Shown: piece by piece, positions 11,917 to 56,200 of the stretch
Layout of the letters: each line of letters begins with the position of its first letter
Numbering within the stretch: the first letter of the stretch is position 1
NCBI RefSeq assembly: GCF_030145815.1
Contig: NZ_JAIXHL010000011.1
Coordinates: forward strand, 62,562 to 126,561
DNA from: Sphingomonas sp.
GTDB taxonomy: Bacteria > Pseudomonadota > Alphaproteobacteria > Sphingomonadales > Sphingomonadaceae
Reading direction: 5' to 3'
Length of the DNA stretch: 64,000 nucleotides
The notes under the pieces: model-generated
The model's input: the letters and a program-made list of their open reading frames with translations, nothing else
What the model was told of the DNA's origin: nothing
Databases searched by the model: none
Translations under genes and position numbers: made by a program

Positions 11917-11944
11917 AGAGCCGTCTCGGAGGACGTCGGCGCTA

Positions 11945-12757: not shown

Positions 12758-13791
12758 CAGAAGTTGTCCCGGTCAATCGTGGGCTTCTGTGGGCTCGACT
12801 TCTCACTTCGTTCTTTCTCGAGCTGCTTCGCATATTGATCCAGCTGGTCACTTGCGACGTCGTTGAAGAACATGAGGGTGCTGCGGCCATCTGCCGGACA
12901 ATGCTTGCCGGTCAGCGAGACGTCGCCGGCAGACCAGTAGCGGACGGTGCAGGAACCGGAGACGGTGCGCTTCGACGCCCCATATTCGCCATCGAGCAGG
13001 CTGACATACCTCTCGTAGTCCGAAACAGCAGCCATGGTGTAGGTGGCCCGCAGCAGATGTCGCACGAACCCTTGGATCTCCACGCTGGTGACACCAGGCA
13101 GGCCAGTGGGGGCGGTGAGTGTCCATTCTGGGAGTGAATTGTCGAGATTCTCCGAAGACGTGACGGAGCTCCCTCGCGACTCAAACGCGGCGACGAGATC
13201 GAAGACGTCTGTTCGCAGAGGATCAGTTCCTGCGAGCTTTACACGCGTCGTCGGGTAAGTCCTTGTGCTAATGCCGAAGAGGGCCTGCGCCAAATCTGGC
13301 CCCATCTGGTCGCGGCCGAACCGCGGCCCCGAATATGCCACACCGATGCTCTGCGGACCAAGGTTGAGCAGGGTCAACGTCTTTAGAGCATGACGGAACG
13401 TGATCTGGTCTCGGTGGGATACGTTTCCCGCCTCAAACCGGCTCCCGGTTGTCACCTTGTCCTTGCCGCAGGCTCTGATTGGATCGAGCGACTGCATGCC
13501 CCAGCTTCCAATCAGCAAGCTTATCCCTTCCCCCGGAGCGCGGATCATCTTGATCTTCACCGACGCCTTCTCCCTCGGGCTGTCGCACTTCCACTCTGCA
13601 TCGTGAGCGCTGTCGGTAAGACTGCGCTGACACCCGGTTGCGCCCTCGACAAGCGGGACCAAGCGCTCGAAGTCGCTTTCGGAGCTCGGAACGAGGTCGG
13701 GGATTGCGCACCAGTTGACAGCAGCCGACGCCTTGCTCGACGCGATCAGCGCCAGCGTCGCAAGCGCCAGGCCCGAAAATTTCCGCTTCAT
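12757..13791 (-). CDS. Secreted hypothetical protein (344 aa)
   Basis: Signal peptide MKRKFSGLALATLALIASSKASA; six Cys; no family recognised. Confidence 0.75.
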   Translation of the reverse strand: MKRKFSGLALATLALIASSKASAAVNWCAIPDLVPSSESDFERLVPLVEGATGCQRSLTDSAHDAEWKCDSPREKASVKIKMIRAPGEGISLLIGSWGMQSLDPIRACGKDKVTTGSRFEAGNVSHRDQITFRHALKTLTLLNLGPQSIGVAYSGPRFGRDQMGPDLAQALFGISTRTYPTTRVKLAGTDPLRTDVFDLVAAFESRGSSVTSSENLDNSLPEWTLTAPTGLPGVTSVEIQGFVRHLLRATYTMAAVSDYERYVSLLDGEYGASKRTVSGSCTVRYWSAGDVSLTGKHCPADGRSTLMFFNDVASDQLDQYAKQLEKERSEKSSPQKPTIDRDNF

Positions 13792-38683: not shown

Positions 38684-39349
38684 ATGGGCCTCAACGGCCA
38701 GATAGGGTCGCGCTTGTTCTTCATCACTTTAGCACTGGCTGCGCAGGTAACATTTGGAGGTTCGGCGACCGTCGTCGATGGCGACACGCTGCGTATCTCA
38801 GGGGAGCTCGTCCGCGTGTTCGGGGTCGATGCTCCAGAAGCATCCCAGATGTGCAATGCTGCAGTTTCTAAGGTGGCTTGCGGCCGAGAAGCGTCAGAGT
38901 GGCTAAGAGCGCATATAGCTGGTCGGACCCTGCAGTGCGTGGCCGTGGAGCGAGACCGCTACGGGCGCATTGTCGCTCGCTGCAGCGTTCAAGGCGTTGA
39001 CGTCGGGCGCTCGCTCGTGGAGGCCGGCTGGGCAACCGCTTATCGCAAATACTCGCTGCAATACGTAGATGCCGAAGCGCGCGCCAAGGCGGCGCGGCGC
39101 GGCATCTGGGCGCTCGGCTTCGAGCGTCCCGAAGCTTATCGCAGAGCCAAGACGGCCAAGGTCACTCCGGAGGCGCCGCCCAACCCGCGGTGCCTAGTGA
39201 AAGGCAATGTTGGCTCGACCGGAGCTCGCATCTACCACCTGCCCGGATCAAGGGACTACCCTAAGGTCCGCATCAATCCTCAGAAAGGCGAACGCTGGTT
39301 CTGTAGCGCCAGCGAGGCAGCGGCTGCAGGCTGGCGCCCTGTCCGCTGA
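38684..39349 (+). CDS. Thermonuclease (SNase) with C-terminal Cys/His domain (ExoI-like)
   Basis: VVDGDTL, VRVFGVDAPE, DRYGRIVARC, LVEAGWA; C-terminal CLVKGN...IYHLPG...Y....I....GERWFCS..EA..AGWR. Confidence 0.9.
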   Translation: MGLNGQIGSRLFFITLALAAQVTFGGSATVVDGDTLRISGELVRVFGVDAPEASQMCNAAVSKVACGREASEWLRAHIAGRTLQCVAVERDRYGRIVARCSVQGVDVGRSLVEAGWATAYRKYSLQYVDAEARAKAARRGIWALGFERPEAYRRAKTAKVTPEAPPNPRCLVKGNVGSTGARIYHLPGSRDYPKVRINPQKGERWFCSASEAAAAGWRPVR

Positions 39350-40666
39350 TCAACGTAACGTGCGCTCCCGGCGAACGGGCGCCTCAGCCCCGGACGTGGC
39401 CCCGCCCGGCCGCTCGACTCCAACCCGCTTCAACGGAGTCGCGCCGACTGGAAGCGAACGCTCGATCACGAGACCGCCACCTGCACTCGCCAGCGCATCC
39501 TGAAGGGTCGAGACGTCGCCGCACCATATCGTCTCGGCATCTCGATCGCGACTTGGATCGGGCCCAATCCCGCCCGCCTCGAATGCAACAGGGCGCATCT
39601 GCATGCGCTCAGCCCCTGCGACTGCGCTGACTTCGACGCCATAGTCCGGCCGCGCGGCGCTCCGAAGCACGAGGCGGCCATCTGTTGCCAAGGATGTCGA
39701 CATGCCCTCGGCAACTTCATAGCCAAGGCTGGCTAGCCCTTCGAGCACAGCCAAGCGGCGCGCAGCGGCGGCACGCTTGGCACGCAACTCCTCAATAGCA
39801 GCACGAACCGAAGCGATCTCGGCCTCAAGCGTGGCAGCGTTCAAGCCATCAACGCTGCCTTCTGAAACAATACCCCCAGCCGCTGACAGTTCAGCGCGTA
39901 GCAGCAAGAGCTCGCCACGAAGCGATGCCCGCAGACGAGCTTCAGTGAGACCGCGGCCGGTCTCTACTTCCAGGCCGTCGAGCAACAACTTCCGTCGGCT
40001 TGGAGCCGCCGAGGCTGCCTCTTCAAGACGCATTCTCGCATTCGCCGTGTCCACCTCACCGATCGTGTCGAGTTCGTCTAGCCTTGCCGCTATCTTCTCC
40101 GTTGCCGGGTCGGCGGGTCCCGCCGGCTGCGAAGCAAGCCAATCGGCAAACGTTTGCGCGGGCGAATTGTCCTTGAGACTCGCTGCGAGACCATGGGCCG
40201 CTCGCTTCTCCACCGCCACGTCCGCCAGCATGGCAAACCCGGTGGTCAGCGCCTGCGCGTCGCCCCGCTCCAACTTGGAGGTTAGCTCAGGTTCAAGCGG
40301 AATCTCAAGTTCACGCAAACGTCGAAGGAGCGAAGCTGCAGCGTCTCGGTCGCGGCGTTCCTTTGAGCGGGCTGCCGCCTGCTCAGCTACGACGGCTGCC
40401 AGCCTGCGCTGCATATCAGCGCGCAAAAACTCCTCTTCGATTGGTGCCTGCTTCTGGACATCCATGAACCGGTCCGCAGCGATCAGAGCCGCCAATGCGT
40501 CCCGCCGTCGGGTGGCTATGGCTAATGCATCCTCATCAATGCATTCGTTTCTTCGCCCGACCCTAGTCCATTCCTCCAATGCCGCGTCGACCCGCGCCAA
40601 ATGGCCCCGGCAGATTTCCAGGATTTCCTCGCGCGTTACGATCCGCACGACTTTCGGTCCGCTCAC
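39350..40666 (-). CDS. Helical hypothetical protein (438 aa), last gene of the four-gene operon
   Basis: MSGPKVVRIVTREE N-terminus; Ala/Arg/Glu-rich coiled coil; globular C-terminal ~130 aa; GTGA overlap. Confidence 0.85.
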   Translation of the reverse strand: MSGPKVVRIVTREEILEICRGHLARVDAALEEWTRVGRRNECIDEDALAIATRRRDALAALIAADRFMDVQKQAPIEEEFLRADMQRRLAAVVAEQAAARSKERRDRDAAASLLRRLRELEIPLEPELTSKLERGDAQALTTGFAMLADVAVEKRAAHGLAASLKDNSPAQTFADWLASQPAGPADPATEKIAARLDELDTIGEVDTANARMRLEEAASAAPSRRKLLLDGLEVETGRGLTEARLRASLRGELLLLRAELSAAGGIVSEGSVDGLNAATLEAEIASVRAAIEELRAKRAAAARRLAVLEGLASLGYEVAEGMSTSLATDGRLVLRSAARPDYGVEVSAVAGAERMQMRPVAFEAGGIGPDPSRDRDAETIWCGDVSTLQDALASAGGGLVIERSLPVGATPLKRVGVERPGGATSGAEAPVRRERTLR

Positions 40667-43600
40667 GCCTGCACTCCCATCGCCGCGGTGATCGCCACGC
40701 GTAGCCGCTCTATTTCCAGTTCCGGCTCATGGAACCAGCGGTGCGATGAGACACGGTGGATCCTGGGGATGGAGCGCCGCAGCACGGCCGGTCGCCACAT
40801 CTCGCGGGCGCGCGCATTTTCCAGCAACGGATGCCGCGGAGCATCGCATTCGATCCCGATGCCATAAAGGCCCGTGCGAGGATCTTCGATCGCGAAATCG
40901 AGCCCAAAGGCTCCGTCATCACCCACCGATGCCGGCTCCCAACCAAGCGAGCGGATTTGATCGGCCACTGCCGCTTCCAGCCCGTCGCCGCCCTCGTGAC
41001 GCAAGCGTTGACGACGCTGCTCAGGCGTCAACCGCATGAGCAGGGCGTCGGCTGCATCCAGGTCACCGTCAGAGAGCGCCCGGGCATATTCGAAATAGGC
41101 TTGCAGGAAGTCGCGCGGACTGGCCGCCTGCCGCCGAGTTGAAAGCATATCCGAGATAAGCGGGATCGGCATCGAAGTGACAAGGATCACCTTCTGTCGC
41201 GCGCGGGTGACGGCAACGTTTAGGCGCCGCTCGCCGCCAGTCTGCCCTAGCACGCCGAACGAACGCCTGAAGGTTCCCTGCGCGTTACGGCCAAACGTCG
41301 ACGAAAAGATGATCACATCGCGCTCATCGCCCTGCACGTTTTCGACGTTCTTGACGAACAGGCCCATGTCCTCGCCGGCCTCGACGCGCTCCCGCTCACG
41401 CGTGAGCGCCGTGCGGAAGGCAGCATCACCCTCGGCCCGCTCCTCGAGCACCTCTTCAATCAGGTCTGCCTGCTTACGGTTGAAGGTCACCACCCCGATC
41501 GTGGGCGGAGCTGTGCCCATGCCTGTGCCAGCCCAGATGTCCCGCAGGACGTCGGCAACCCGCTCGGCCTCTTCCGGGTTGGTCTGATCGACATAAGTCC
41601 CGTCGACGCGGATCATTTCGACAGGCCGCTTGCGCCGGACTTCATCCGCCGGGTGACGGGCTGGGACGCTCAGGCGATTTACATAGAATGACGCATTGGA
41701 GAACTGGATGAGTTCACGATAAGCAGACCGATAGTGGATCTGCAGCGTGGTCGACGGCAGCACGGTCTTCGCGAGCTGCAGGAGATCGGGACAGTCCTTG
41801 ATCTCGCGGCGGTTCCAAGTCTCTTCGAGCGCCTCGCGCTCCTCCTCAGGTAGGTCCTCTTCGGCCGCCTGTCCTTCGAAAACCTCCGCTTCGTCGCTCT
41901 CCACGCGGCTCGAGAAGAAGGCAGTGGGTGGCATCTGCTTCTCATCGCCGCTCACGATCATCGTGCCGCTTCGGTAAAGGGTAGGGAGCGCATATTCGAC
42001 GGGCATCTGTGAGGCCTCGTCGAAGATGACCGTGTCAAACAGCGCCTTGCGCAGCGGAAGCAGTCTGCTTGCGACATCGGGGTTGACCAGCCAAACCGGG
42101 CGTAGCTGCATCAAGCCGAGGTCGGCACCGCGCTCAACAAATTCGCGCAACCGCCGGGCCCGAACGCCGCGCAACCTCGTAATATCTTCCCACTCACGAA
42201 GCGGCCGCAGCCTGCTTGCATCTAACCCGTCGACCAACAGCCGGCGGTTGAGGCCACGCATTTCGCTGTCGGCTGTCTTCAGCGAAGCCGCCTTCGCCTC
42301 AAGCTCGTCGGCCTCCAGCATCAATGTGGGGTCGGCCGCCTCCATCCGCGACTTCCAGGCGAGCCGCGCCTCCATACCCATAATGCGCCGCACGGTCGGC
42401 TCCAACTCGGGCCGGAGGAGATCCTCAAGCCGTTCGCGTATCCTCGCGAGCTGGGCGAAGACGGCCATCGCGTCCTCGCCCAGCTGCGGCACCCTGGCAC
42501 GGAAACGCTGGTAGGCCGCGACGTGCGGCAATGCCTCTACCAGCGGCGCGGCAGCTGCAGCACCGGGACCGTTAGCCGCGATTGCGGCTTCACGGGCCTC
42601 TACCCAGTCGTCCTGCATCCATGGCTGCAATCGTGTCAGCGCAGCGCGCGACGCGGTTCGAGCTGCGTGGCGCGCCAGACCCTGGTCGATGCCTTCCATG
42701 AGGTCTTCGACCGCCCCACGGGTAGCCGCGCGCGCCATGGCCCTAGCGGTTTGCGGCTCAGGATACGCTTCGAGCCTCGCCACGAGCGACTCCGCAGCGG
42801 CAAGCTCCGACTGAAGCGTCCGGGCGTGCGACAGCAGATCCGGGACGCGCAACGGCGGCAGATGACCACCTGGCTCTCCGACCTCCACGGTCACATCGAC
42901 GAGTCTCGAGCGAAGCGGCCGCAGGTCAACCTCACGGTGCAGCGCCGCGCCGAAGGCCTGCCGGTCCGTTAGACCTTCCTGCTTCATCAAGTTCCGGCGG
43001 CGCCAAGCAGCCATCCAGCGGCTGGGGGCCAGCCTCTGGAACAGCGTCGGACGAGCCAAGAGGCGATCGGAAATCGCGAGCCAATCGTTTAGCTCGACAT
43101 CGTCCATGGCGCGCGCGACTTCGACGGCGTCCACCGGCGCATCGTCGGCCGGCAAGGCGAGCATCGCCCGCTCGAGTTCACTCAGTTCCACCTGCGTAGC
43201 TGTGGTCCCGGGCTCCCGATCAACAACACCCGCAAACCGGTCAAGCCAGCGCGCCAGACGTGCCCTCGCACTCTCGTCCAGGCCAAGCAGCGTCCTGCCA
43301 TTCGCGCCTGACCAAGCTCGATGGGGCTCGGGATCCTCGATTGCCAGTGCGTCCGGCGTTCGCTCCGTCACCTCTTCCCGAGATGTCTCTGCGCCATGGA
43401 AGGCCCGCAGGTCGTCGCTGAAGGTCTCGACGCTGCCATCGTCCGTGCCGAACGCACGCGTCTCCGCCAGAGGGCTGTCTTCATATCTCGCCGGTAGCCA
43501 GAGCCGTGCGGTTGGCGCGCACACCTCCTGGAGCACGGCGAGCCTTCCCGGATCAAGCGACGCCAACGTATGCCGGAGTGATGGAAGCGGGGGCGTTACG

Positions 43601-46600
43601 CCTTCTCGAGCCAAGCCGATCAAGTCGCCCAGCACGAGGCGATACGACAGCCCCGTTTGACCATCGACCGCGTGCAGAGCTCGATGCTGACCGTCCAGGT
43701 CGCGCTCGAGAGACTCAATGCGCGCTGCGGCTTGCTCGCGCTGCTGCCGCCAACCCGATGCGCCATGCGGCCGCTGAAAGATCTCTTCCAGCTGTTCGCG
43801 AACGGCGCGGATGACCGGCTCCCGATCTTTGTTGACATCGTTCACCATGACGACGCGATTGCCCAGCCCAGCCGCCTCAAGGCGCTTATGCACGACTTCC
43901 AGGGCAGCTTGCTTCTGACAGACCACTAACAAGCTGCGCCCGGTGCCGATCGCGTCGGCAACCATGTTGACGATTGTCTGGCTCTTGCCGGTCCCCGGCG
44001 GCCCCTCGACCAAGAGACCACGCCCTGCCCTGGCCTCGAGCACCGCAGCCTCTTGGGAAGGATCGCTATCGGCGGTGAAATAACGCTCACGTTCGGCAAC
44101 CCGCGGCACTTGCGTGCGCTCAATCTCATCGCCCACGCGGAACGCCGTTTCGAGACTGCTGCCCGCGGGCGGCATCGCCTTTAGCTGCCGCAGGTCCTCC
44201 ATGACGGCCTGACCCATGAATCCCAGGTGGAACAGCGCGGCTGAACAGAAGACCCGGTCCTCGCCCGCATTTACGCGCAGGTCCTTCGAAGGAAGCGGAA
44301 CCAGGGTTCGTCCTTGAACCTCCGCCAATTCGCCGAAGGCTTCAATCACCTCCGCGGCGGTTGCAGATGCCCTGCCCAGCACCTCGTCGGCCACCTCGCG
44401 CCAGCGCTGTGCGGCGTCGATGCCCAATAAGGTCTCGAAAGCAGGATTGAGACGAACCTCCTCGCGGTCGCGGTCGAAGGCCAGCGTCACTCGACCACGC
44501 GAGCCTGTCTCTGGATGAAGCTTTACGGGCCACAACAAGATCGGCGCGATCCGCGGTCGTGTCGAGCGGCTGGCCTCTTGCATCACAAGGAAGGGAAAGC
44601 CCAGGTAGAGCCCGTCGATGCCAGTGTCGCGGCGGTAGAGCGTCGCGTGAGAGTGCAGTGTCCGCAGCCGCCGCTCGACACGCGCATCCTCGGCGAACGC
44701 GTGTGGGTCGACGTCAATTACCTGTTCATTGCGAAGCAGCACATGGTCAAGGAGCGACCCTGCGGTCCGACGCGGACTGTCGAGCTCGGCTAGGTCGATC
44801 CGCGCAGTCGTCTTCCCAACGATGAGCCTTGTCAGAGGGCCACGCATGATCGCGCCGGTGATGCGTCGCGCATAGAAGTCGAGCAGCGTGGCGACATAGG
44901 CTTGGCGCGGCGGCTGTCGCCAAGCCTCCGGCGACACCGCCAGCAGCGCTAGCGCGCGCGCCAGCGGCAGGCGCCGTTCGAGCCGAAATTGGTCGCCCCA
45001 CTCGTCGATACGATCAATGCCACACCGAGCGAAGCCCTCAAGCCGCGCTTCGATCTCAGCATGCAGCGCGCGCCGCGGCGTCGCCGTTCGAGCCAAAGCG
45101 GCGTCTCGGTCGAACGTCTCAAGGCCAGCCCGCCTGGCGGCCTGCTCCGCCTCGTCCACAATGGCATCTGCGGCTCGGAACTGCGACGTGGCCGCGCTGA
45201 GCAGCAGGATCAGATCCTCTTCCTCAGTCACACGCCGCTCGACGATTGCTAGCAATCCGGGATGGTCGGTGTCTGGAAGTATGCGCCTACGCTCGTCCCA
45301 GACGGCTGCCAGGCGACTTTTGGAAGTCGAGAGCGCAACAACGCGCATCTGAGCCTCGTCGAGCTCGACGTCCAGCTGACGCGCGCGCTCGCGAACGCGG
45401 GCCTCGCGGCGCTTGAGGCGGGCCAACCACACCTCATCGTCATCGCGCTCCAGCCGTTCCGGAACAGGTCCAGAAATGAGCGCGTAACCCTCGTTGGGAT
45501 GTTCGAGGAGCCAGCCAGGCGTTACGATCTCGCCACGCACCACCAATGGCATCGACGGGTTAAGCGCCTTTAGTGCCAGCGCGAGGCGCAGATCGTCCGA
45601 TACGTCCTCGAGCGCAGCGATCGAACGAATGTCCGCGCGAAGTTGGGCGTGCTGCCCGGCCTCCTCAAGCCATGTGGCGACCTCGCCGCCGAGCAGCATT
45701 GAGCGCGCCTCGTCCCATGTGCCGGCATCAGCAGCAGCCAGTGCGAAACGCTCGGGGCTCGCGTGCCGCACACCGGCCAGACGGATCGACCGCTTGCTTT
45801 CGTGATCGCCGAGTTGCCGAAGGGCCGCCGGCGCATCCGGAACTTCGCCAGCAAGCCAACGCTGAACCTCAGCCCATTGCCAGCGCACGTGGCGGTCAAG
45901 CGAGAGCAGACCTCGTAACAGAGCATCTACCCGTGCGGTCAGACCTTCAGGGATGGGCGCGCCATTGGTCAACACGGTGATCAGGAACGTCTGATCGTCA
46001 GCACCAGCGAAGCATTCCCCTCGGGTGACCTGCTCGAGGATCATCATCCCCAGGCTCCACCAATCGCTGGCAGCGGCCACGCCGCCCGCGACGGCCTCTG
46101 GCGCGGTGTAGCGCGTGATCTCCAACGGCGAGACGACGTCTAAATCATACTCGGAAAGGCGAGCGGAACCGAACCCGCCAATCACGAGATCAAGTGGTTC
46201 GCGTTGGCGGACTAGTATCGCTCCTGGACGAAGGTCACGGTGACGCAGCCCGCATTCACCCAAGGCTGCAAGCGCTCCCCCGACTTCGCGCAGGATGCTC
46301 GACATTGTCGCATCATCGTCTGCCAGCAGCCCTAGATCCGCAAACGTGCCGCCGCGCACATCTTCCGCTACCTCGTAGGCACGGTCCTCCCAGCGCCCGG
46401 TCTCGTAAATCTCAGGCACATGGTCGCGGTCCAGCGCGCGAAGAGCGTCATAAACTTCAGTGTCCGGCTCGCTTCCGTTTGCGTAGAGGGTGAGCACCGC
46501 CGCGCGAGCATCACCACTGTGAATGGCTTCATAGCGCTCGCGCACATGGCTGGTGCTCGGCAGACGCCGGATCAGCCGCCAATCCGCGACAACGGTTTCG

Positions 46601-46941
46601 GAGTCGCCCTCGCTGTTCGCACCAGCTTTTTCATCAACGGCGTCAGGCTCGCCGGTCGTCCGATCTACTATCGAAGGATTAGCCGCATCGGCTTCAACAG
46701 AGATATCGCCCCCGCACTCGGCGCACATGATGTCGCCGAGATCCATTGGGTGGCCGTTTACGCAGCGGGTCGCTGGGGCCTCGACCGGATCAACTGGAGC
46801 GACCTGCTCGGGCCGCCAGCCTTCGGGCCGAAGCGGTTGCGACGATAGCGGCCAGTCGCATGGCGAACCATCAATCTCGCCCTCGCAGAAGGTCTCGCTG
46901 GGAGGCCGCTCCGACCGGCAGTTGGGGCAAAACCGAATCAA
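40663..46941 (-). CDS. 2092-aa multidomain protein: double Zn-ribbon, pseudokinase, DUF4011, SF1B (Upf1/Dna2-like) helicase, MTES_1575/Vsr-like nuclease
   Basis: CPNC/CVNGH/CAEC; HRDLRP, APE, DWWSLG; LYLGFPFL...APILLWPV...NPAF; GPPGTGKS, IFDEASQ, GDEKQMPP, HYRS, VQGDERD, RLNVAVTRAR; C-terminal LDFAI...GIECD. Confidence 0.88.
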   Translation of the reverse strand: MIRFCPNCRSERPPSETFCEGEIDGSPCDWPLSSQPLRPEGWRPEQVAPVDPVEAPATRCVNGHPMDLGDIMCAECGGDISVEADAANPSIVDRTTGEPDAVDEKAGANSEGDSETVVADWRLIRRLPSTSHVRERYEAIHSGDARAAVLTLYANGSEPDTEVYDALRALDRDHVPEIYETGRWEDRAYEVAEDVRGGTFADLGLLADDDATMSSILREVGGALAALGECGLRHRDLRPGAILVRQREPLDLVIGGFGSARLSEYDLDVVSPLEITRYTAPEAVAGGVAAASDWWSLGMMILEQVTRGECFAGADDQTFLITVLTNGAPIPEGLTARVDALLRGLLSLDRHVRWQWAEVQRWLAGEVPDAPAALRQLGDHESKRSIRLAGVRHASPERFALAAADAGTWDEARSMLLGGEVATWLEEAGQHAQLRADIRSIAALEDVSDDLRLALALKALNPSMPLVVRGEIVTPGWLLEHPNEGYALISGPVPERLERDDDEVWLARLKRREARVRERARQLDVELDEAQMRVVALSTSKSRLAAVWDERRRILPDTDHPGLLAIVERRVTEEEDLILLLSAATSQFRAADAIVDEAEQAARRAGLETFDRDAALARTATPRRALHAEIEARLEGFARCGIDRIDEWGDQFRLERRLPLARALALLAVSPEAWRQPPRQAYVATLLDFYARRITGAIMRGPLTRLIVGKTTARIDLAELDSPRRTAGSLLDHVLLRNEQVIDVDPHAFAEDARVERRLRTLHSHATLYRRDTGIDGLYLGFPFLVMQEASRSTRPRIAPILLWPVKLHPETGSRGRVTLAFDRDREEVRLNPAFETLLGIDAAQRWREVADEVLGRASATAAEVIEAFGELAEVQGRTLVPLPSKDLRVNAGEDRVFCSAALFHLGFMGQAVMEDLRQLKAMPPAGSSLETAFRVGDEIERTQVPRVAERERYFTADSDPSQEAAVLEARAGRGLLVEGPPGTGKSQTIVNMVADAIGTGRSLLVVCQKQAALEVVHKRLEAAGLGNRVVMVNDVNKDREPVIRAVREQLEEIFQRPHGASGWRQQREQAAARIESLERDLDGQHRALHAVDGQTGLSYRLVLGDLIGLAREGVTPPLPSLRHTLASLDPGRLAVLQEVCAPTARLWLPARYEDSPLAETRAFGTDDGSVETFSDDLRAFHGAETSREEVTERTPDALAIEDPEPHRAWSGANGRTLLGLDESARARLARWLDRFAGVVDREPGTTATQVELSELERAMLALPADDAPVDAVEVARAMDDVELNDWLAISDRLLARPTLFQRLAPSRWMAAWRRRNLMKQEGLTDRQAFGAALHREVDLRPLRSRLVDVTVEVGEPGGHLPPLRVPDLLSHARTLQSELAAAESLVARLEAYPEPQTARAMARAATRGAVEDLMEGIDQGLARHAARTASRAALTRLQPWMQDDWVEAREAAIAANGPGAAAAAPLVEALPHVAAYQRFRARVPQLGEDAMAVFAQLARIRERLEDLLRPELEPTVRRIMGMEARLAWKSRMEAADPTLMLEADELEAKAASLKTADSEMRGLNRRLLVDGLDASRLRPLREWEDITRLRGVRARRLREFVERGADLGLMQLRPVWLVNPDVASRLLPLRKALFDTVIFDEASQMPVEYALPTLYRSGTMIVSGDEKQMPPTAFFSSRVESDEAEVFEGQAAEEDLPEEEREALEETWNRREIKDCPDLLQLAKTVLPSTTLQIHYRSAYRELIQFSNASFYVNRLSVPARHPADEVRRKRPVEMIRVDGTYVDQTNPEEAERVADVLRDIWAGTGMGTAPPTIGVVTFNRKQADLIEEVLEERAEGDAAFRTALTRERERVEAGEDMGLFVKNVENVQGDERDVIIFSSTFGRNAQGTFRRSFGVLGQTGGERRLNVAVTRARQKVILVTSMPIPLISDMLSTRRQAASPRDFLQAYFEYARALSDGDLDAADALLMRLTPEQRRQRLRHEGGDGLEAAVADQIRSLGWEPASVGDDGAFGLDFAIEDPRTGLYGIGIECDAPRHPLLENARAREMWRPAVLRRSIPRIHRVSSHRWFHEPELEIERLRVAITAAMGVQA

Positions 46942-47582
46942 GAATTAGCTCCCACCATGTCGGACGTGACGGTCTGATGACCGGCGGCCGCGAGGACTCG
47001 CCTCAGCCTGGCCAATTCACCGCGCGCGGGTATGCCGGCCAACCAAGCATGACCTTGCTCGTCGAATGTGACATCGAGCCGGCGGTCCGCAGCTGTGGCC
47101 GGACGATCATAGGACAGCATTTCAGCACCCGCGGCGGTCAGCGCATGAATGCGCTGATTGTCGCTCCCCCGCAAAGCGAGCGTCTGCGGAAGCTCCGAAC
47201 GGAAGCGGCCGGTAATTACCGCATCGATCAGATCAGGATGATCGGAGAGCCAACTTTCCACCTCGCTAAGCTCCCGACCAGTGAAGACGAGCGTGGTCGT
47301 GCCGGCGATGGCGCGCCAATGCGCAAGAATAACGGCCAGAGCATCTGGCTGGTCGAACGGTTCACCGCCGGACACTGTTAGGCCATCAGCCTCGTGGGCC
47401 ATCGCGCTCAGCTGACCCAGGATCTCTTCCATGAGGGCGGCACCGAGGCCCGGCTTCCATGTGTCCATTGAGATGCAACCAGGGCACCCTATGGAGCATC
47501 CCTGGAACCACAAGCCGACCCGTTGGCCTGGCCCAAGCGCACTCACCGGATAGTGCAGCCTTGAGATAAACGCGTGCGTCAC
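46938..47582 (-). CDS. Small radical SAM protein, NrdG/PflA activase-like (4Fe-4S single cluster)
   Basis: GPGQRVGLWFQGCSIGCPGC (CxxxCxxC), GLTVSGGEPFDQ, LRGSDNQRI; 4-bp overlaps on both sides. Confidence 0.9.
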   Translation of the reverse strand: MTHAFISRLHYPVSALGPGQRVGLWFQGCSIGCPGCISMDTWKPGLGAALMEEILGQLSAMAHEADGLTVSGGEPFDQPDALAVILAHWRAIAGTTTLVFTGRELSEVESWLSDHPDLIDAVITGRFRSELPQTLALRGSDNQRIHALTAAGAEMLSYDRPATAADRRLDVTFDEQGHAWLAGIPARGELARLRRVLAAAGHQTVTSDMVGANS

Positions 47583-49405
47583 GCGTCCTCCAAGATGAGG
47601 GTTGTGACCGTGCCAGCCTCAACTCGCTGCACTTTGACGGGCGCGTCGCTTTCACGATCGAAAAGCGCGCGAGCGAGCGGATTTATCAGGTGAGCCTCAA
47701 TCTGATTACGGATGCCGCGACCGCCGTTCGAGAGGTCCGCGGTGCACAGATGCCGAAGCGCGTCCCACGCTTCGGACGACAGCGTCACGCGGTGGCCCGA
47801 TGACTCAGCGTCTGCCAGCACCGAGCGCACCATCGATGCGAAAATCTCCTCGGCCACCGCCGGGCGGATGAAATCGAAGACGATTACGTTCTCGCCGAAC
47901 CGGTTGAGGATCTCGGGGCGGTTGAGAACCAGCTTGAAGTGATTGCCGATCTCAGCGCGCACGCGTGAACGGACCTCCTCGAAGGGTTGGTCCGGCGTGA
48001 CATTCGCTTTCCTACTGCCATCCGGCGCAGTCGAGTAGATGCCAAGGTTCGACGTGAAGATGATCAGGGCCTCGGAAAAATAGACCCGGTCACCACGGCC
48101 CGAGGTCAGCACCCCGTCGTCCAGGATCTGTAAAAACTTGTCGAGAATGCGCGGATGAGCTTTTTCGATCTCGTCGAAGAGCACGACGGCGAAAGGGCGC
48201 TCGCGCACGGCGTTCGTAAGCTCACCACCTGCGTCATAACCGACATAGCCCGGCGGCGCGCCGATGAGCCGCTGGTCAGCGTGCTCGGCGCTGAACTCGG
48301 ACATGTCGAAGCGGATGTATGCGCTCTCGTCCCCGAAAAGCAGCTCAGTTACGGTCTTGGCGAGTTCGGTCTTACCCACGCCGGTAGGTCCGGCAAGAAA
48401 CGCGATACCACGTGGCCGGCCGCCGCGTCGGCCGCCGCCTATCCCCGTAGCCGCTCGCTTGACGATATCCAGCATGTGAACAACGGCATGATCCTGCCCG
48501 ACGACGCGGCGCCTTATTGCTTCAGCCCCACCGCGGATCCTTTCACGCTCAATCTTGCGCCAGGCGTCCTCAGTGACGCCCACCTTGTAGCGCCTGACAG
48601 CCTCCCCAACATCCTGCACCTGGACGCCTTCTGTTCGGGCGAGTTGGGCGACAGCACTTAAATCAACCAGCAACATGCCCTCGGTGGCATCGACCAAGTC
48701 TGCCACGGCGGCATCGACCACCGCCTTTTCGGCTTCGCGCGCACCCGGCATGCCGCGCACGAGCGATGGCGCGACGGCGCCGCGGGCCGCTCGATCAGGC
48801 GGCGCAATCGGGATGTGACGGAGCCGCGGATTCTCAATCGTGAGCCAATCGGGAAGGTCCCCCTCCCTTTCAGCGACCCAGACAATGCAATTGTAGCGAG
48901 GCGCGCGGTCGGGCCCCACGGGCTGGGCCTGGGCCGATTGGCTCAGCACGAGCGCGCGGGTGAACAGCGCTTGCTCTTGCGGCGATAGCGCATCGTTTCG
49001 AACCACGAGACGCGAAGCGAAGTCAGCAACTAAGGCGATCGGCGCTCCGTCGAGCGCGACGAGTCGCTCGAGCGTGACCCCGAAGAGATCGGTGCCGGCT
49101 AGAGCTCGGCCATTGGCTGGGGTCAGGCCGAGCCTGGCGAGAATGCCATCGGCATCCGCAGGCGATCCATCTGGACGCGGCAGCACCGTGCAGCCCCCGA
49201 CAGGGTCGTAGCGAACGACGCCTGCGTATCCTGCATCGTAAAGCGTGGCCGCTAGAACGTCAGAGAGCGGTGCGGCAACGGCCACGCCGCCTATATCGCG
49301 AATCTGCAGGTCTCTGATGTTGCCGGTGAGCAAAAACTGGCTCTTGAGCGGAAGGAACCGGGTCAGGTCGCGAACCCAACGCGGCCGCACGTCTTTTTCC
49401 CCCAC
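47579..49405 (-). CDS. Clp/Hsp100-type AAA+ ATPase with one intact NBD2 and a degenerate N-terminal module
   Basis: VVGQDHA, FLAGPTGVGKTELAK, RFDMSEF, LIGAPPGYVGY, VLFDEIEKAHP, LQILDDG.LT, IFTSN, RPEILNR. GTG 49405 has a GGGGGA RBS (ORF opens at 49435). Confidence 0.9.
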   Translation of the reverse strand: MGEKDVRPRWVRDLTRFLPLKSQFLLTGNIRDLQIRDIGGVAVAAPLSDVLAATLYDAGYAGVVRYDPVGGCTVLPRPDGSPADADGILARLGLTPANGRALAGTDLFGVTLERLVALDGAPIALVADFASRLVVRNDALSPQEQALFTRALVLSQSAQAQPVGPDRAPRYNCIVWVAEREGDLPDWLTIENPRLRHIPIAPPDRAARGAVAPSLVRGMPGAREAEKAVVDAAVADLVDATEGMLLVDLSAVAQLARTEGVQVQDVGEAVRRYKVGVTEDAWRKIERERIRGGAEAIRRRVVGQDHAVVHMLDIVKRAATGIGGGRRGGRPRGIAFLAGPTGVGKTELAKTVTELLFGDESAYIRFDMSEFSAEHADQRLIGAPPGYVGYDAGGELTNAVRERPFAVVLFDEIEKAHPRILDKFLQILDDGVLTSGRGDRVYFSEALIIFTSNLGIYSTAPDGSRKANVTPDQPFEEVRSRVRAEIGNHFKLVLNRPEILNRFGENVIVFDFIRPAVAEEIFASMVRSVLADAESSGHRVTLSSEAWDALRHLCTADLSNGGRGIRNQIEAHLINPLARALFDRESDAPVKVQRVEAGTVTTLILEDA

Positions 49406-49575
49406 CGCTGCAATCCCCCGTTCCGGATGACGCACCTTCCCAACGGTGCGCCGCAGCCCAGACTATCGGGTCGGCGGCTTAACACAATGCTGCCACCCGC
49501 CTGTTGCCCATAATGGTCCAGTTCGGCACTTTGCAAACTAGGCCGTTCGGGTATCGCGGCTGGGGGGAGAGCGCA

Positions 49576-50277: not shown

Positions 50278-50567
50278 GGTTACCGGTGACGCGACTACGG
50301 CGGCCGCCCGTTTCACACATTGAGCTGTTACCAATCGCCGATGTGCAGATAGGCTAAAGCCAGCGTGGGACGTCTTGAGACAGTCTGCCGTCGGCAAAGC
50401 GTCCCAAAAGCGGTCGCTTCGGAGGAAGCGAAGCGCTCCTGTAAGCTGCTGTTCAAGAGACCTGCCGCGCTTCGCTGAGCGCAAGAGCGCTTCCCGCCGC
50501 GACGGGCGAAACCCTGCTTGCGTCCGTCACCAGACCCGATCAGTCTGGCATGAAAAGGGGAGGGGAC

Positions 50568-53228
50568 ATGGCCAAGGATCTAATGGGTTGGGCTGCCGAG
50601 CAGCCCGACTGGGTGAAGGACAGCCTGCGGCGGATCGCCGTCGCGGCGGACCATTCGATCGAGCAGGCGGATGTCGATTGCATCCTCGACAACGTGCGCG
50701 CCGCGGCCGGGGCAGGCTCGACCGTCCACCCCATGACAGCCATCGACGCCTCCCATCTCGGAGGCGGCTCGAGAGAGGCGCGGCGGACGGTGCTGGCGCA
50801 GCTTGGTCCCGTGCAGAACATCGACCGCCTTGCCGGTGGCCAAAAGCTGCGCATGGCCGGTGTGGGCATCACGCTGATTTACGGGGAAAACGGGAGCGGA
50901 AAGAGCGGATACACCCGCATCGCTAAGCGACTTTGCCGGAGCCTGACCTCGGACCAACTACGGGGGAACGTGTTCGACGCCGGCGGCGGGTCGATGCGGG
51001 TGCAGGTGCGCTACCAAGTCGGCGACGACGCGGTGACTGAGATCGATTGGGATCCCGCAACGCCACCTCCCTCGCAGCTCCGTCAGATCTCGGTCTTCGA
51101 CAGCCACAACGCCCGGCTCTACGTAGATAGTGGTAACCGGATTGCCTACCTGCCGCGCGAGCTCGCGATCCTCGAGCACCACGGCGAGCTATGCCAACGG
51201 ATGGCAACGAGATTCTCGGCGGACGAGAAGGCGCTCGCCCTGCGGCTGCGGATCGCGCTGCCGGCCGGCTACACCCCAGGTAGCGCGGTCACGCTGACCC
51301 TCGCCAAGCTGGATCCGAAAGCCCCCTCGCTGCCTACCGAGGACGAGATCCGCAGCCTGTCCGAGCTGAGCGAGCCGGAGCTCGCCGAACTCGCCCGGCT
51401 CGAAGCCGAGCTCGTCGCCGATCCGGTCGCGCTTGCGGCGACCCGCCGCCGCGCCATCACCGTGATGAAGCGCGTGGGCGAGGTGCTGGCCACCCTCCGG
51501 GACGGTCTCTCGGACAGGGTCGGTGAGATCATTGCGTCGGCTCGGCGCGAGCTGACCCAGGCGGTCGAGGCGGAGAGGATCGCGGCGACCGCCAGTTTCA
51601 CAGGCGAGCCCATCGCGAACGTCGGCGGCGAGGCCTGGCGGGTCCTGTTCGAGGCGGCGCGCCGGTTCGTGGCCGCCGGCCTAGAACCCGCGCCCGCGCG
51701 TCTGCCCGAGGCGACGGGCGACCTGTGCGTCCTGTGCCTCGAGCCACTCACCCCAACGGGCTCGGCCCGGCTGGCCCGGTTCAACGACTTCGTCAGTGGC
51801 GAGGCCACGAAGCGCGCCGACGGCGCGCGCGACGCCCTCAAGGTGCTCCTAGCGCAGGTCGAGCACGTTAAGGTGCCGGAGGCATCCGTGGTCGAGGAGA
51901 CCCTCGCCGGATACGGCCAGCTCGATGCGACCCGGGCCATGACCGTTGCCGACATTCTGAAGGCGCTGGCCGGGTTCGAGGCGAGGCGCGCCGCACTGCT
52001 GGACGAGACGGCGACGCCTGCACCGGCGACGGACGTAACCGCGCTCGTGGAGACGGTCGCGGCGGAACTCACGCGCCTTGAGGACGAGGCCGCCTCGCTC
52101 CAGCGACGCGCCTCGCACACCGAGGTGCTGGACGCCAAGCGGACGCGGCTTGCCGAACTCAAGGACCGGGCGAAGCTCGCCAATGATCTGGAGACGGTTC
52201 TGCAGCGCCTGCGGGACGTCACGGAGCAACGGTCGCTGACGGGATGCCAAGCCCAGGTGGCGACACGGTCGATCTCGACACAGATCACCGCCCTGCGCAA
52301 GCATCTCGTCACCGAGGAGCTCGAACGGAGGATCGCGGAGGAGATCGCCGCGCTCGACCTCACCCATCTCCCGTTCAAGGTCAGCGACTCCAGTTCGGGT
52401 GGCAAGAGCCTGTTTTCGGTCGGCCTGCACGGTGCCGGCGCGGTGAAGAACAACCAGGTGCTTTCAGAGGGCGAGCAGCGGGCGCTCGCGCTCGCCTGCT
52501 TCCTCGCCGAGATCGGAGGCGACGACGCGCGCTACGGCATCATCGTTGACGACCCCGTCTCCTCGCTCGACCACCTGCGCATCCGCAAGGTCGCGCACCG
52601 TCTCGTCGCCGAGGCGAAGAAGGGCCGGCAGGTCATCATCTTCACGCACAACCTGGTGTTCTTTAACGAGGTCGTGTCGGAGGCGGCCAGGGCAGGGGAC
52701 GCCGCGCCGCTGGTCAAGTCGGTCGTCGCCAAGACCCAGTCCGAGGGCTTCGGCGTGATCCGCGAGAACCGCGAGCCATGGGTGGCCGACCTCAATGCAC
52801 GAATCGACACGTTGCGAACGCGCGCGAAGGAACTCAAGGTCGTGACCGACTTCGACACGGATGAATACCGGCGGCAGGCGAAGGACTTCTACTCGGACCT
52901 GCGCGAATCCTGGGAACGGGCGGTCGAGGAGGTCGTCTTCGCGAAGACGGTCGTAAGGTTCGTGCCGGATGTCATGACGGGCAGGCTCAAGGAGGTTACC
53001 GTCACCGACGATGACTATCGGACAATCTTCTTTGCAATGAAGCGAGCGTCGGAACGCTCAGGCCACGACATGTCGGCCGGCCGGAACCTCCCGCAGCCAT
53101 CCCCTGACGAGATGGAAGCCGATCTCAAGGTGCTCGACGACTTCAGGATAGCGCTCGGCAAGCGGCGGAAGGCGACGTGCGCAGCGCGTTCCGCCCTCGA
53201 GAATCCGGTCGGCGCGACGCTGCTCTAG
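50568..53228 (+). CDS. Rad50/RloC-like ABC ATPase with zinc hook and putative HEPN-like C-terminus
   Basis: IYGENGSGKS (Walker A), CVLC at the coil apex, LSEGEQRALALA signature, IIVDDPVSSLD, IIFTHN; ~150-aa extra C-terminal domain with RASERSGH. Confidence 0.75.
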   Translation: MAKDLMGWAAEQPDWVKDSLRRIAVAADHSIEQADVDCILDNVRAAAGAGSTVHPMTAIDASHLGGGSREARRTVLAQLGPVQNIDRLAGGQKLRMAGVGITLIYGENGSGKSGYTRIAKRLCRSLTSDQLRGNVFDAGGGSMRVQVRYQVGDDAVTEIDWDPATPPPSQLRQISVFDSHNARLYVDSGNRIAYLPRELAILEHHGELCQRMATRFSADEKALALRLRIALPAGYTPGSAVTLTLAKLDPKAPSLPTEDEIRSLSELSEPELAELARLEAELVADPVALAATRRRAITVMKRVGEVLATLRDGLSDRVGEIIASARRELTQAVEAERIAATASFTGEPIANVGGEAWRVLFEAARRFVAAGLEPAPARLPEATGDLCVLCLEPLTPTGSARLARFNDFVSGEATKRADGARDALKVLLAQVEHVKVPEASVVEETLAGYGQLDATRAMTVADILKALAGFEARRAALLDETATPAPATDVTALVETVAAELTRLEDEAASLQRRASHTEVLDAKRTRLAELKDRAKLANDLETVLQRLRDVTEQRSLTGCQAQVATRSISTQITALRKHLVTEELERRIAEEIAALDLTHLPFKVSDSSSGGKSLFSVGLHGAGAVKNNQVLSEGEQRALALACFLAEIGGDDARYGIIVDDPVSSLDHLRIRKVAHRLVAEAKKGRQVIIFTHNLVFFNEVVSEAARAGDAAPLVKSVVAKTQSEGFGVIRENREPWVADLNARIDTLRTRAKELKVVTDFDTDEYRRQAKDFYSDLRESWERAVEEVVFAKTVVRFVPDVMTGRLKEVTVTDDDYRTIFFAMKRASERSGHDMSAGRNLPQPSPDEMEADLKVLDDFRIALGKRRKATCAARSALENPVGATLL

Positions 53229-56200
53229 GCGAGCCTGATTTCCGAACATCCCTCCCTGCCAAGCACCTCCTTGGCGATTGCCGCCAAGTGCTCGTGGTGC
53301 GTGAAGAACAGGACCTGAGTTGATCTCGACAGCTCCGCAAGCACGCGAAATCCCGCGCGCGAACGATCGTCGTCGAAGTTCACGAAGAGGTCGTCGGCCA
53401 AGAAGGGGAGCCGCACGCCAGCGCCCACAGACTGTTCTAGCGCCGCGATACGCAGCGACAGGAACAACTGATCAGTCGTTCCTTCGCTCATCTGTCCCAC
53501 TTCCACGACCGTCTTGCCGTCTTCGCAAAGGCCGATCAGTCTGGGCGTCGCGTCCTGCATGTCGGCATCCAGGCCTTTGTAGCGGCCCAGCGTCAGCGTC
53601 TCGAAGATCGTGCTCGCTCGAGCGAGCAGCGGATCCTGGTGCTTCTTGCGATACTTTTCGATTGCCCACCGCAGCATGACGGCCTGGGTGCGCTTCATCA
53701 GATAGGCGTCCGCCTGCACCGCCATCTCTGCACGTGCCGCCTCGGCGTCCGCTTGCGCGTCTGCGGCTGAGTGGCCGTCGACGTCGAGGTCATCGAACCT
53801 GCGGCGCGCGTCGCCGTAGGTTCTGGCTGCATCGGAGATGGTGTCGTCGAGCGCGTCGGCCTCGCCGCTGGCCTGCTCCCTGCGCGATGCGATCTCGTCG
53901 GGCGTGGTCTCGGCGAGCGCTTCAAGTAGCTGTTCAAGTCCGTATCCGTCACCCTTGGCGACGATCTCCATTTCCAGTTCGCGAACCTTGGCACGCAAAG
54001 CGCGCACCTGCGCTGATGCGTCGAGGCGGTCCGAGAGGAGGTCCGTGTCCTCGATCGCGAGTTGCTTCATGACTTCCCCGAGGCCGCTTCTGGCCGCTTC
54101 TGACTTTGCGGCGGCCTCGCCCTCTTCGGCCGATCGGCGCAACACCTCGGCCTTGAGCTCCCGAGCTCGCGCCTCGGAGGCCCGGGCCTTCGAAAGACGA
54201 CTTTTCAGGACGTCGAGCGGGTCGCTGCCGCCTGGAGCGCAGTCGAGCCTGGCCGCAAGCTCCGCCACGGCGGACTTGAAGACGTTCGCGTCGCGCTCGA
54301 TGCCGACGACACGGGTTCGAAGGGTGGCCTGCTCCTCGGAAGCGCTACGAAGCTCGTCGATGATGTCGAAGCGCAGGTCGGCACCTTCGACCGGCAGATC
54401 GACCCCGGCGCGCTCCGACACGGCCTTCCAGGCCCTAAGGCCCTTCTGCTCCCCCCCCTTGTGGGAGGCAATCGACTTGGTGAGGGCGTCCGCCTCGTCG
54501 ACAAGCCTCGCGATCTCCTGTTCGAGTTCCCTTCTCGCGAGCGCCTGCTCCTCGCGTATCTCCCGCGCGGCTTCCGCTGCGGTGAGGATCGGCACGATCA
54601 CTGGATTCGTCGGAGTTTCGATGTCCAGAGCCCGACATAGCGCCGTCAACGCATCGCGCCGGCGAGATTGCGCACGTGCGAGTTCGCCTTCGGCGCCGGC
54701 TACGGCTTCGAATGCCTCGATCGCGTCGGTGCGAGCCGCGTGCCACGCGGCCAACGGGAGCGGCGCAAGAAGTGGAAGCCCCGCCCGCGCGAGACGGTCG
54801 TCCCATTCACGTCTGAATTCGCTCAGAGCTGCCTCAGCCTCGGTCACGGCGCGGCCGGCTTGCTTTGACTCCAAGTGAAGCCGATTGCGCACGTCGACCA
54901 TCTCCGCGAGGCGGCCGGATACCTCGGCAGACGAATAGCGCCTATCGGCGAGCGCGTCCGCCTTCTCGACGAGATCGCCGTATGCGGCTGCTCGCCGTCG
55001 GCCGTCCTCAATCACGGATCCGGCCGTTAGTCCCTCCCGGATGAAATCCCAATCCGCGTCCCGGACCCGCCTGGCAGCTGCGAGCGCCTCCATCGTTACC
55101 GCTCCCTCCGAGGCGCTTCCGCTTTCAATCTGATGCGAGAGGGTCTCGACCTCGTTCCGAAGCCGTGTGGCAGTGGTGGACGCCTTCTTAAGCTCGGCCT
55201 CCAATTCCGCGAAGCAATCCTGCCCCTGCTGCAGTTCTGCGTCCGATAGCGAAGGTAGCCCGAGCAGGTCGATGGCCGATCCGCTCCAAGGCTTCAGTTG
55301 GGCGAGCAGCGCATCCCGCCGGGCAGCGGTCCGATTTAAGGTTTCGGCTGCCGCGTCGCAGCGGTCGTCGAAGTCGGCACCAAGCTGCCGGGCCGCACTG
55401 ACCGCGGAGACGAGCGTGGTCAGGGCCGCGTCCGCGGGCAGCTCGGTGAGCCTTTGCTCCAGGCGCGCGAGTCGGGAGCGAACGTCCCCGAGGTTCCATT
55501 CAGCCTGGTCGGCAGCTGCGCGCGCGGACACGATGCCGTTCAGGACATGCCGGAGCTCGGTCACCTGAGTGCGTGTTGGCACAACCGCAACCGCGGATCC
55601 GAATTCCTTTTGAAGGTTGCTCACCTGAAATTCGAGCTGCTCATGCTTCGCGGCGAGTCTGGGCAGATCTTCAGCGGCCTTGGTCTCGGCTCCGCGCCGT
55701 TCGAAAAGCCGTTCGATCTGTTCCGAGGCGTCGAGCACCGGGTCACGGAGATCGACGGCGCATATTCGCTCTTCGGCCTCCGACAAGAGCCGTTTCGCCA
55801 TAGTGCGATCGCGTTCCGCCCGTTCGAGTGCGCCAAGGCACTCTCGTGCTTGGGCCTCGATCTGCTCGCCGACGACGATGACGTCAGCGAGCTCGCCAAG
55901 CTCCTGCAACGTTCGGGCGCGAGCTTCGACCAGACTGGCGACGCCCCGGAGGCGATCGAGGGAGCGCAGCTCCTGCTTCAGTGCCAGCCGCTCGTTCTCA
56001 AGCTCCTTCAGTGCCGCGTTAGCTTCTTCTAAGGCTGCGCGCGCATCCGACCACGCCTTCGGCTTGAGACTGGCGTCTCGAACCGTGCGGAGGCTGGCTT
56101 CTAGGTTGCGCTCGGCGGCGGTGTAGGTGCGGCTGGCCTTGGCACGCTTGCCCCAGATGCCGTCAGCATCGTCCTCGAGCGTGGCCAGCACCGAGGCGAC

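Follow-up and report, generated by a model that had tools for sequence, protein, structure and literature searches.

A divergent NrdG/PflA-related radical SAM protein coupled to a ClpB-like ATPase and a helicase-nuclease in a putative defence operon of Sphingomonas

Introduction

To our knowledge, every described glycyl-radical activase works as the partner of an oxygen-sensitive metabolic enzyme. The present work concerns a predicted radical S-adenosylmethionine (SAM) protein, hereafter rSAM, which resembles the activases NrdG and PflA and is encoded in a 64,000-nucleotide stretch of Sphingomonas sp. DNA (contig NZ_JAIXHL010000011.1, positions 62,562 to 126,561 of the forward strand); this whole stretch is called the window. 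The rSAM gene is part of a four-gene operon together with the genes of a ClpB-like AAA+ ATPase, a giant helicase-nuclease, and a coiled-coil protein. Radical SAM proteins are found in other described systems. In Ophion, the partners of the radical SAM enzyme OpnA are PHP and PRTase (bioRxiv 10.1101/2025.09.30.679545), and among the NTPase conflict systems regulated by kinase, FHA, and PP2C components, the radical SAM protein that is mentioned is part of a ternary vWA-MoxR/FtsH system whose effector is a peptide (Kaur et al. 2020, eLife, PMC7159879). For the activases themselves, modelling of the pyruvate formate-lyase activating enzyme (PFL-AE) with its peptide identified Asp16 and Asn38 as persistent hydrogen-bond partners of Gly734 (PMC9326890). 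Here, we report that rSAM represents a divergent family descended from the NrdG/PflA (glycyl-radical-activase) branch, and that it does not serve any canonical glycyl-radical enzyme as its activase.

Results

rSAM is a divergent relative of the glycyl-radical activases

The first-pass annotation of the window, which a model made from the letters and their open reading frames, had described a 214-residue radical SAM protein with CxxxCxxC and GGEP motifs. Both motifs are present at the sites claimed (Table 1), and a search of Pfam matched the protein to Fer4_12 with 83.5 bits. The rSAM translation includes ...LGPGQRVGLWFQGCSIGCPGCISMDTW...LTVSGGEPFDQP.... One database gene call is 202 residues long and begins too late, whereas the 214-residue start is correct because residues 7–12 (SRLHxP) are kept among homologues. 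Conservation was measured on an alignment of 56 rSAM sequences from many phyla, in which the GxxNxR region shows little or no variation from phylum to phylum and the C-terminal extension carries a conserved DxxFD...AGIPxRG motif. The AlphaFold2 model of rSAM is confident, with a predicted local distance difference test (pLDDT) score of 93.8. rSAM is very probably catalytically active.

Comparison with curated models and known structures pointed to the activase branch. The best NCBIfam match of rSAM is NrdG (TIGR02491), with 77.6 bits against a cut-off of 126.1, followed by PRK11121 (57.6 against 199), PFLA (46.5 against 231.75), and nrdG3 (40.1 against 151.7). When the profile of the 56 sequences was compared with the PDB, PflA was matched with an E value of 1.3e-15 and QueE with an E value of 1.9e-6, the QueE match being restricted to rSAM residues 26–92. 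In Foldseek searches with the rSAM model, the PFL-AE structures 8fo0, 3c8f, and 3cb8 were on top, with E values of 3e-6 to 7e-6, and QueE and viperin-like structures ranked after them, the viperin-like ones with E values of 7e-4 or weaker. A phylogeny, which the first-pass annotation had proposed, was computed as a midpoint-rooted maximum-likelihood tree of 75 sequences comprising the family, NrdG, PflA-like and NrdG2-like proteins, and QueE. In this tree, branches of about 3 or more substitutions per site part the rSAM family from NrdG, PflA, the NrdG2-like proteins, and QueE. The separation alone was taken from the tree because the program flags long-branch effects; the attachment of the long NrdG, PflA, and QueE branches inside the bush of the family is such an effect and was not used.

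Analysis of the alignment and the model indicated that rSAM is a family of its own, in which a core of NrdG size is followed by a C-terminal beta-hairpin and helix; E. coli NrdG, with 154 residues, is without this extension. The GPGxR loop is kept in rSAM (G17, P18, G19, and R21) and is homologous to the D16-G-P-G-I-R21 substrate-peptide loop of PFL-AE. At the two positions with which PFL-AE anchors the substrate glycine, Asp16 and Asn38, rSAM has an invariant Leu16 and a near-invariant Ser38, and therefore substrate binding by rSAM is not canonical. E. coli NrdG has Asn at both anchoring positions (N-GPGTR and C-Y-N).

The first-pass annotation had also suggested, by loose analogy to the antiviral viperins, that the substrate may be a nucleotide. 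This analogy found no backing in the model searches: no viperin model is among the NCBIfam matches of rSAM at E ≤ 0.01, PADLOC (which is without an rSAM model) gave no match whatever at the same threshold, pVip included, and the viperin-like structures rank below both PFL-AE and QueE. Nucleotide or small-molecule chemistry, that is, a viperin- or QueE-like conversion yielding an antiviral or signalling molecule that would be bound by the (pseudo)kinase domain or the ATPase of the operon, is in our assessment improbable. It could draw on the QueE and viperin-like structures being the next fold matches after PFL-AE, on the weak profile match to QueE, on the lost glycine-anchoring residues, and on the nucleotide-binding kinase fold that always accompanies rSAM. 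Set against these are a score of 17 bits for the QueE model TIGR04349, whose cut-off is 300, and the retention of the activase GPGxR loop in rSAM, whereas E. coli QueE has no such loop at the equivalent position. In addition, rSAM is constantly paired with a protein unfoldase rather than with an enzyme of nucleotide chemistry.

The source genome encodes no glycyl-radical enzyme

The first-pass annotation had stated that no NrdD- or PflB-like gene is present in the 64 kb, and this statement extends to the whole genome. The source genome (100% complete, 82 contigs) contains no match to NRDD (PF13597), Gly_radical (PF01228), or PFL-like (PF02901), in searches in which control genomes gave the expected matches. 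The description of rSAM as an orphan NrdG/PflA-like protein thus stands, with the branch assigned by NCBIfam, by the PDB profile comparison, and by the fold, and with a genome that is without a glycyl-radical enzyme. In a phylum sample of 401 genomes, the rSAM family was found in 6, and 5 of these carry no glycyl-radical domain; the sixth encodes an NrdD with its own 150-residue NrdG adjoining. One true NrdG that was found as a weak match is located directly beside NrdD, and the true NrdGs differ from the rSAM family in length, score, and neighbourhood.

That rSAM might be an ordinary NrdG/PflA activase for a glycyl-radical enzyme encoded elsewhere in the genome is extremely improbable, short of such an enzyme on a replicon missing from the assembly. 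NrdG and PflA are its best family matches, but the complete genome lacks all three domains, the scores fall under all cut-offs, and the tree branches are long. True NrdGs, moreover, adjoin NrdD, whereas rSAM is in fixed synteny with the genes of the ClpB-like protein and the helicase. The more specific candidate, a true NrdG serving a distant NrdD, was ruled out by the genome being without a glycyl-radical enzyme and by the differences in length, score, and neighbourhood. The combination that the first-pass annotation had set against its own proposal, clustering with NrdG together with an nrdD lacking its own activase, was not found, as the genome has no NrdD and the separation in the tree is long.

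rSAM belongs to a conserved module with a ClpB-like ATPase

In the window, the open reading frame coordinates support translational coupling of rSAM within the ATPase/helicase-nuclease operon. The start of the rSAM gene overlaps the stop of the 618-residue ATPase gene by 4 bp, its stop overlaps the start of the 2092-residue gene by 4 bp, and the 2092-residue and 438-residue genes overlap by another 4 bp; the earlier claim that rSAM is coupled on both sides, between an ATPase and a helicase-nuclease, is therefore confirmed. A search upstream of the first gene of the operon found no sigma-70-like promoter and no intrinsic terminator. The 2092-residue protein is matched in Pfam by Pkinase, DUF4011, AAA_11, AAA_12, and the MTES_1575 nuclease, in NCBIfam by ProA (NF058533, 508.8 bits against 1500) and Hhe (NF042953, 338.7 against 2000), and in PADLOC by PDC-S37 (493.8 bits). 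The MkoA model matches it as well, and the ProA, Hhe, PDC-S37, and MkoA matches are all below the equivalog cut-offs. The helicase-nuclease is the likely effector. The 438-residue protein has no match in Pfam, NCBIfam, or PADLOC.

To compare the operon across genomes, we used 80 loci, one per species, which were found by family alignment of rSAM. A ClpB-like gene is located within 10 kb of rSAM in 74 of the 80 loci, mostly immediately upstream and on the same strand. The ClpB-like protein is an obligate partner of rSAM: its distinctive N-terminal half was detected in 6 of the 401 sampled genomes, and these are precisely the 6, from six different families, that carry the rSAM family. The loci take two forms. 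Type A, with the four-gene order of the window, comprises about 30 loci from Alpha-, Beta-, and Gammaproteobacteria, Acidobacteriota, a Parachlamydiales metagenome-assembled genome, and others. Type B comprises most of the remaining loci, from Actinomycetota, Synergistota, Nitrospirota, Atribacterota, and some Proteobacteria; it has no giant fusion and instead encodes a separate Ser/Thr kinase (Pkinase scores up to 124.8 bits) and an FHA protein, often with a Zn-ribbon start, and one annotated type-B locus also encodes a PP2C phosphatase. A kinase fold, as a pseudokinase or an active kinase, thus co-occurs with rSAM in both forms. On a rumen Aristaeella plasmid, the parts lie unfused in a row: a DUF4011 helicase, a Ser/Thr kinase, a protein of the 438-residue family, an FHA protein, rSAM, an AAA protein, and PP2C.

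Searches with an iterated hidden Markov model (HMM) found the 438-residue family in 48 loci of both forms, and in type B its gene is usually located just upstream of the ClpB-like gene. The iterated HMM was needed to join the 438-residue protein to the 514-residue unknown protein of a Synergistaceae locus, because pairwise BLAST between the two was not significant (E = 0.14). Since the family is present in type B too, the core includes it, and the conserved core module is a 438-like protein, the ClpB-like ATPase, rSAM, and a kinase or pseudokinase. The first-pass annotation had correctly named the ATPase and the helicase-nuclease as partners, and it had missed the 438-residue gene, the (pseudo)kinase, and the kinase/FHA/PP2C form of the module.

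The gene following rSAM was examined in 74 loci by a simple test on the longest open reading frame beginning near the rSAM stop. In 40 of the 74 it opens with CxxC, a set that includes all full-length type-A genes and many type-B Zn-ribbon-FHA genes. In type A, the Zn-ribbon start after rSAM is part of a fusion with the pseudokinase-helicase, and in type B it is part of a fusion with FHA; the actinobacterial gene at this position has a different Cys-rich start (YRCP..C..C.H).

The make-up of the loci also bears on whether rSAM acts on nucleic acid. A role in which rSAM modifies or damages the DNA or RNA handled by the helicase is, to us, the least likely of the readings that give rSAM a function within the operon. 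Direct coupling to the helicase-nuclease in the window and the occurrence of a more distant rSAM relative beside a DEAD+UvrD helicase fusion are in line with such a role. Many type-B loci, however, have no helicase part within 10 kb of rSAM, though ClpB-like, kinase, and 438-like genes are present, and Pfam recognised no nucleic-acid-binding domain in rSAM. Only slightly less unlikely is a non-catalytic role, in which rSAM would be a redox, iron, or SAM-level sensor or a structural subunit gating the ATPase and the nuclease, for example by sensing phage SAM-degrading enzymes. The module does consist of regulatory parts (pseudokinase, FHA, and PP2C), and no substrate of rSAM is identifiable; yet the three cysteines, GGEP, and the GxxNxR region are invariant or nearly so, as expected of an active enzyme, though a SAM sensor would keep its binding residues too.

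Several individual loci showed further features. In a type-B locus of Nitrospirota (L052, positions 11235-13142), the FHA gene is followed by genes for a CxxCxxCC metal-binding protein and a rubredoxin-reductase-like flavoprotein, which are a possible electron supply for rSAM. Two more distant relatives of rSAM were observed. The first (L119, G078:C24) is a 216-residue open frame with 31% identity to rSAM that adjoins a 1704-residue DEAD-box and UvrD helicase fusion. The second (L125), with 33% identity, is encoded on plasmid pCAL6303.02 of Calothrix sp. PCC 6303 in a chaperone-linked setting, with an Hsp70-family gene and a 1316-residue TPR protein on one side and a 494-residue unknown protein and an 848-residue double-AAA ATPase on the other. 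In an enterobacterial-type genome (G311:C2:124476-125377), the N-terminal half of the ClpB-like protein is divided into two open frames of 179 and 468 residues, which suggests a frameshifted, possibly decaying cassette. In one genome of the 401-genome sample (G073), the module is distributed over two contigs (L121 and L123): rSAM and FHA are beside a phage-lysozyme/SH3 gene, and the 438-like protein and the ClpB-like ATPase are encoded on the other contig.

Candidate targets within the module

We searched the module for residues that might be modified by rSAM. In the 438-residue family, M1, S2, and C382 (in WCGD) are invariant across both forms, and G315-Y316 is nearly invariant. The pair G315-Y316 and C382 recall the Gly loop and the Cys loop of glycyl-radical enzymes. 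The C-terminal domain was modelled by AlphaFold2 with a pLDDT of 88.7, and C382 is located inside a long helix; Foldseek against the PDB returned no match for this domain at E ≤ 0.001 and no fold like that of a glycyl-radical enzyme. No Gly is invariant in the family, as Gly3 and Gly315 both vary. The idea that the 438-residue protein is a cryptic mini glycyl-radical protein is thus unsupported: G315 varies in type B, C382 is modelled in a helix, and Foldseek found neither the fold of a glycyl-radical enzyme nor any other confident fold.

At the N-terminus, the type-A proteins share the invariant sequence MSGPKVVRIVT, and the type-B proteins have MS followed by small residues and a hydrophobic strand. 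No single N-terminal Gly is conserved, because type B has SSSAGY, SNSAAY, SGE, or SKL. Gly3 of MSGPK was considered as a radical site and rejected, since only M1 and S2 are universal and type B has other residues. Either the AAA+ pore or rSAM may use this N-terminus to grip the protein. A further candidate, the Zn-ribbon start of the gene after rSAM, shows a conserved adjacency to rSAM.

Genomic neighbourhood and mobility

The coordinates of the operon, its motifs, and the neighbouring genes are given in Table 1.

Table 1. Positions of the rSAM operon, its conserved motifs, and adjoining genes in the window
Feature	Position	Strand	Basis or remark
rSAM gene, intact	46938..47582	-	214 aa, GTG start; open reading frame list
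CX3CX2C [4Fe-4S]/SAM cluster motif, C29/C33/C36	47475..47498	-	Invariant in 56 sequences
GGEP SAM-binding motif, G72-G73-E74-P75	47358..47369	-	Invariant in 56 sequences
L16-G-P-G-x-R21 loop	47520..47537	-	Profile alignment to PflA and conservation
C-terminal extension of rSAM, about 65 residues, beta-hairpin and helix	46941..47135	-	Predicted secondary structure; family-specific
ClpB-D2-like AAA+ ATPase, degenerate N-terminal half	47579..49435	-	618 aa; AAA_2 153.8 bits, ClpB_D2-small (Pfam)
Zn-ribbon/kinase-like/DUF4011/SF1 helicase/MTES_1575 nuclease protein	40663..46941	-	2092 aa; Pfam
N-terminal Zn-ribbon (CPNC...C...C) of the 2092-aa protein	46843..46941	-	CxxC start downstream of rSAM
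Coiled-coil protein with C-terminal alpha/beta domain	39350..40666	-	438 aa; last gene of the operon
N-terminal MSGPK of the 438-aa protein	40652..40666	-	Invariant in type-A loci
Cys382 (WCGD) of the 438-aa protein	39521..39523	-	Only invariant internal residue across both forms
AAA_13/AAA_21 (RloC/AbiEii-type) ABC-like ATPase gene	50550-53228	+	892 aa; about 1.1 kb upstream of the operon, opposite strand
AAA_27/AAA_23 protein gene, translationally coupled to a Metallophos (Mre11/SbcD-like) protein gene	53225-57921	-	1147 aa and 417 aa
SNase-family nuclease gene	38684-39349	+	Convergent with the 438-aa gene, abutting

The AAA_13 ATPase upstream looks like part of an apparent defence island, and the AAA_27 and Metallophos genes form an SbcCD/YhaNO-like pair that adjoins the island. 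At the other end of the operon, the SNase gene ends one base before the stop codon of the 438-residue gene.

The rSAM gene is patchily distributed. None of 120 sampled other genomes of the host's family carries it. Members of the rSAM family are found on plasmids, including Rhizobium and Caballeronia megaplasmids and small Paenarthrobacter, Calothrix, and Aristaeella plasmids, and 6 of the 14 plasmids with the family are predicted to be conjugative. In phage genomes, only true NrdGs were found, and no phage match covers 80% of the rSAM query. The P. paraeruginosa locus has the same four genes as the window, and in P. aeruginosa, DUF4011 and rSAM genes flank the defence hotspot cDHS1 (Johnson et al., PMC10250203). 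No paper describing the cassette as a system was found in the searched literature, one of the searches being swamped by unrelated 'HHE' papers. Because of the model matches of the helicase-nuclease, the patchy distribution, the carriage on plasmids, the defence-type neighbours, and the cDHS1 flank, we regard the operon as probably an anti-phage or anti-plasmid conflict or defence system.

Discussion

We propose a mechanism in which rSAM would make a 5'-deoxyadenosyl radical and abstract a hydrogen from a polypeptide, and in which the AAA+ unfoldase would present or remodel that polypeptide for it. The target would most likely be a component of the system itself, with the 438-residue protein (N-terminal tail or Cys382) and the Zn-ribbon following rSAM as candidates. 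The modification might license, activate, or trigger the nuclease effector; this part of the proposal is speculative. Taken as a whole, the reading of rSAM as a conflict-system enzyme that abstracts hydrogen from an unfoldase-presented polypeptide, likely a system component, and thereby licenses a nuclease effector is, in our view, evenly balanced between being right and being wrong.

The narrower claim, that the substrate of rSAM is a polypeptide handled by the AAA+ protein, we place somewhat above even. Several observations argue for a protein substrate. rSAM has kept the GPGxR loop with which the activases bind their peptide, its partners are chaperone-type ATPases (ClpB-like in the module, and Hsp70 plus AAA on the Calothrix plasmid), and no nucleotide-enzyme partner is present. 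The suggestion of the first-pass annotation that a neighbouring operon protein is the substrate accordingly gains plausibility from the unfoldase pairing, the loop, and the chaperone contexts, and it falls short in that neither the 438-residue protein nor the Zn-ribbon could be singled out as the target.

Several points weigh against this mechanism. The glycine-anchoring residues of PFL-AE are replaced in rSAM, and the source genome offers no partner with a glycyl-radical domain. In the 438-residue family no Gly is invariant, its conserved Cys382 is modelled inside a long helix, and its C-terminal domain shows no glycyl-radical-enzyme-like fold. In an aerobic organism, a stable glycyl radical could not persist. 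PADLOC does not recognise rSAM. Finally, the cassette genes belong to the core genes of P. aeruginosa, which is unusual for a mobile defence system (PMC10250203).

A bolder version, in which rSAM and the ClpB-like unfoldase form a new immune switch that works by radical protein chemistry, appears doubtful. Here the unfoldase would feed rSAM a component of the system (e.g., the 438-residue protein) or a phage protein, and rSAM would take a backbone or side-chain hydrogen. In aerobes, a resulting cross-link, epimerisation, or oxygen-dependent backbone cleavage could then arm or sacrifice the helicase-nuclease.

The rSAM family is a large sister family of the activases that is fixed in strict aerobes, never has a glycyl-radical enzyme as its partner, and is always tied to an unfoldase and a defence-type helicase-nuclease. 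This setting implies a use of radical SAM chemistry without described precedent, which may be a post-translational step in bacterial immunity. Through the family, a widespread operon, which in Pseudomonas aeruginosa belongs to the core genes, also becomes open to experiment, with the cluster cysteines as obvious mutagenesis targets.

Comparison with known systems clarifies the position of the operon. Like NrdG (TIGR02491) and PflA/PFL-AE (TIGR02493; PDB 3C8F, 3CB8, and 8FO0), rSAM has the Fer4_12 fold, a partial TIM barrel, and it shares with them the N-terminal CX3CX2C, the GGE motif, the GPGxR loop, the DTW after the third Cys, and a core of NrdG-like size. It differs from them in having Leu16 and Ser38 in place of Asp/Asn16 and Asn38, in its extension of about 65 residues, in scores below the curated cut-offs, and in its partners, which are always a ClpB-like ATPase, a coiled-coil protein, and a (pseudo)kinase instead of NrdD or PflB. 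The prokaryotic viperins (pVips) and OpnA of Ophion are likewise radical SAM enzymes inside defence-type operons; rSAM belongs to another branch and has other partners, whereas pVips act alone on nucleoside triphosphates. With the kinase/FHA/PP2C-regulated NTPase conflict systems (PMC7159879), the cassette shares an AAA+ NTPase and inactive kinase domains and, in its type-B form, the FHA/PP2C parts of a phospho-switch. Unlike the radical SAM system described there, the pair found here is ClpB-like and NrdG-like. The 2092-residue protein has the DUF4011/SF1 helicase/MTES_1575 nuclease body of Hhe, of the 'anti-phage protein ProA', and of the PADLOC candidate PDC-S37. In contrast to these single-protein systems, it carries a Zn-ribbon and a kinase-like domain as well and is accompanied by three genes, that of rSAM among them, as fixed partners; it scores below the Hhe and ProA equivalog cut-offs, and rSAM and the 438-residue protein are without an NCBIfam or PADLOC model. 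The operon is a multi-gene variant of the Hhe/ProA kind, and rSAM is a new functional family within a known kind of enzyme.

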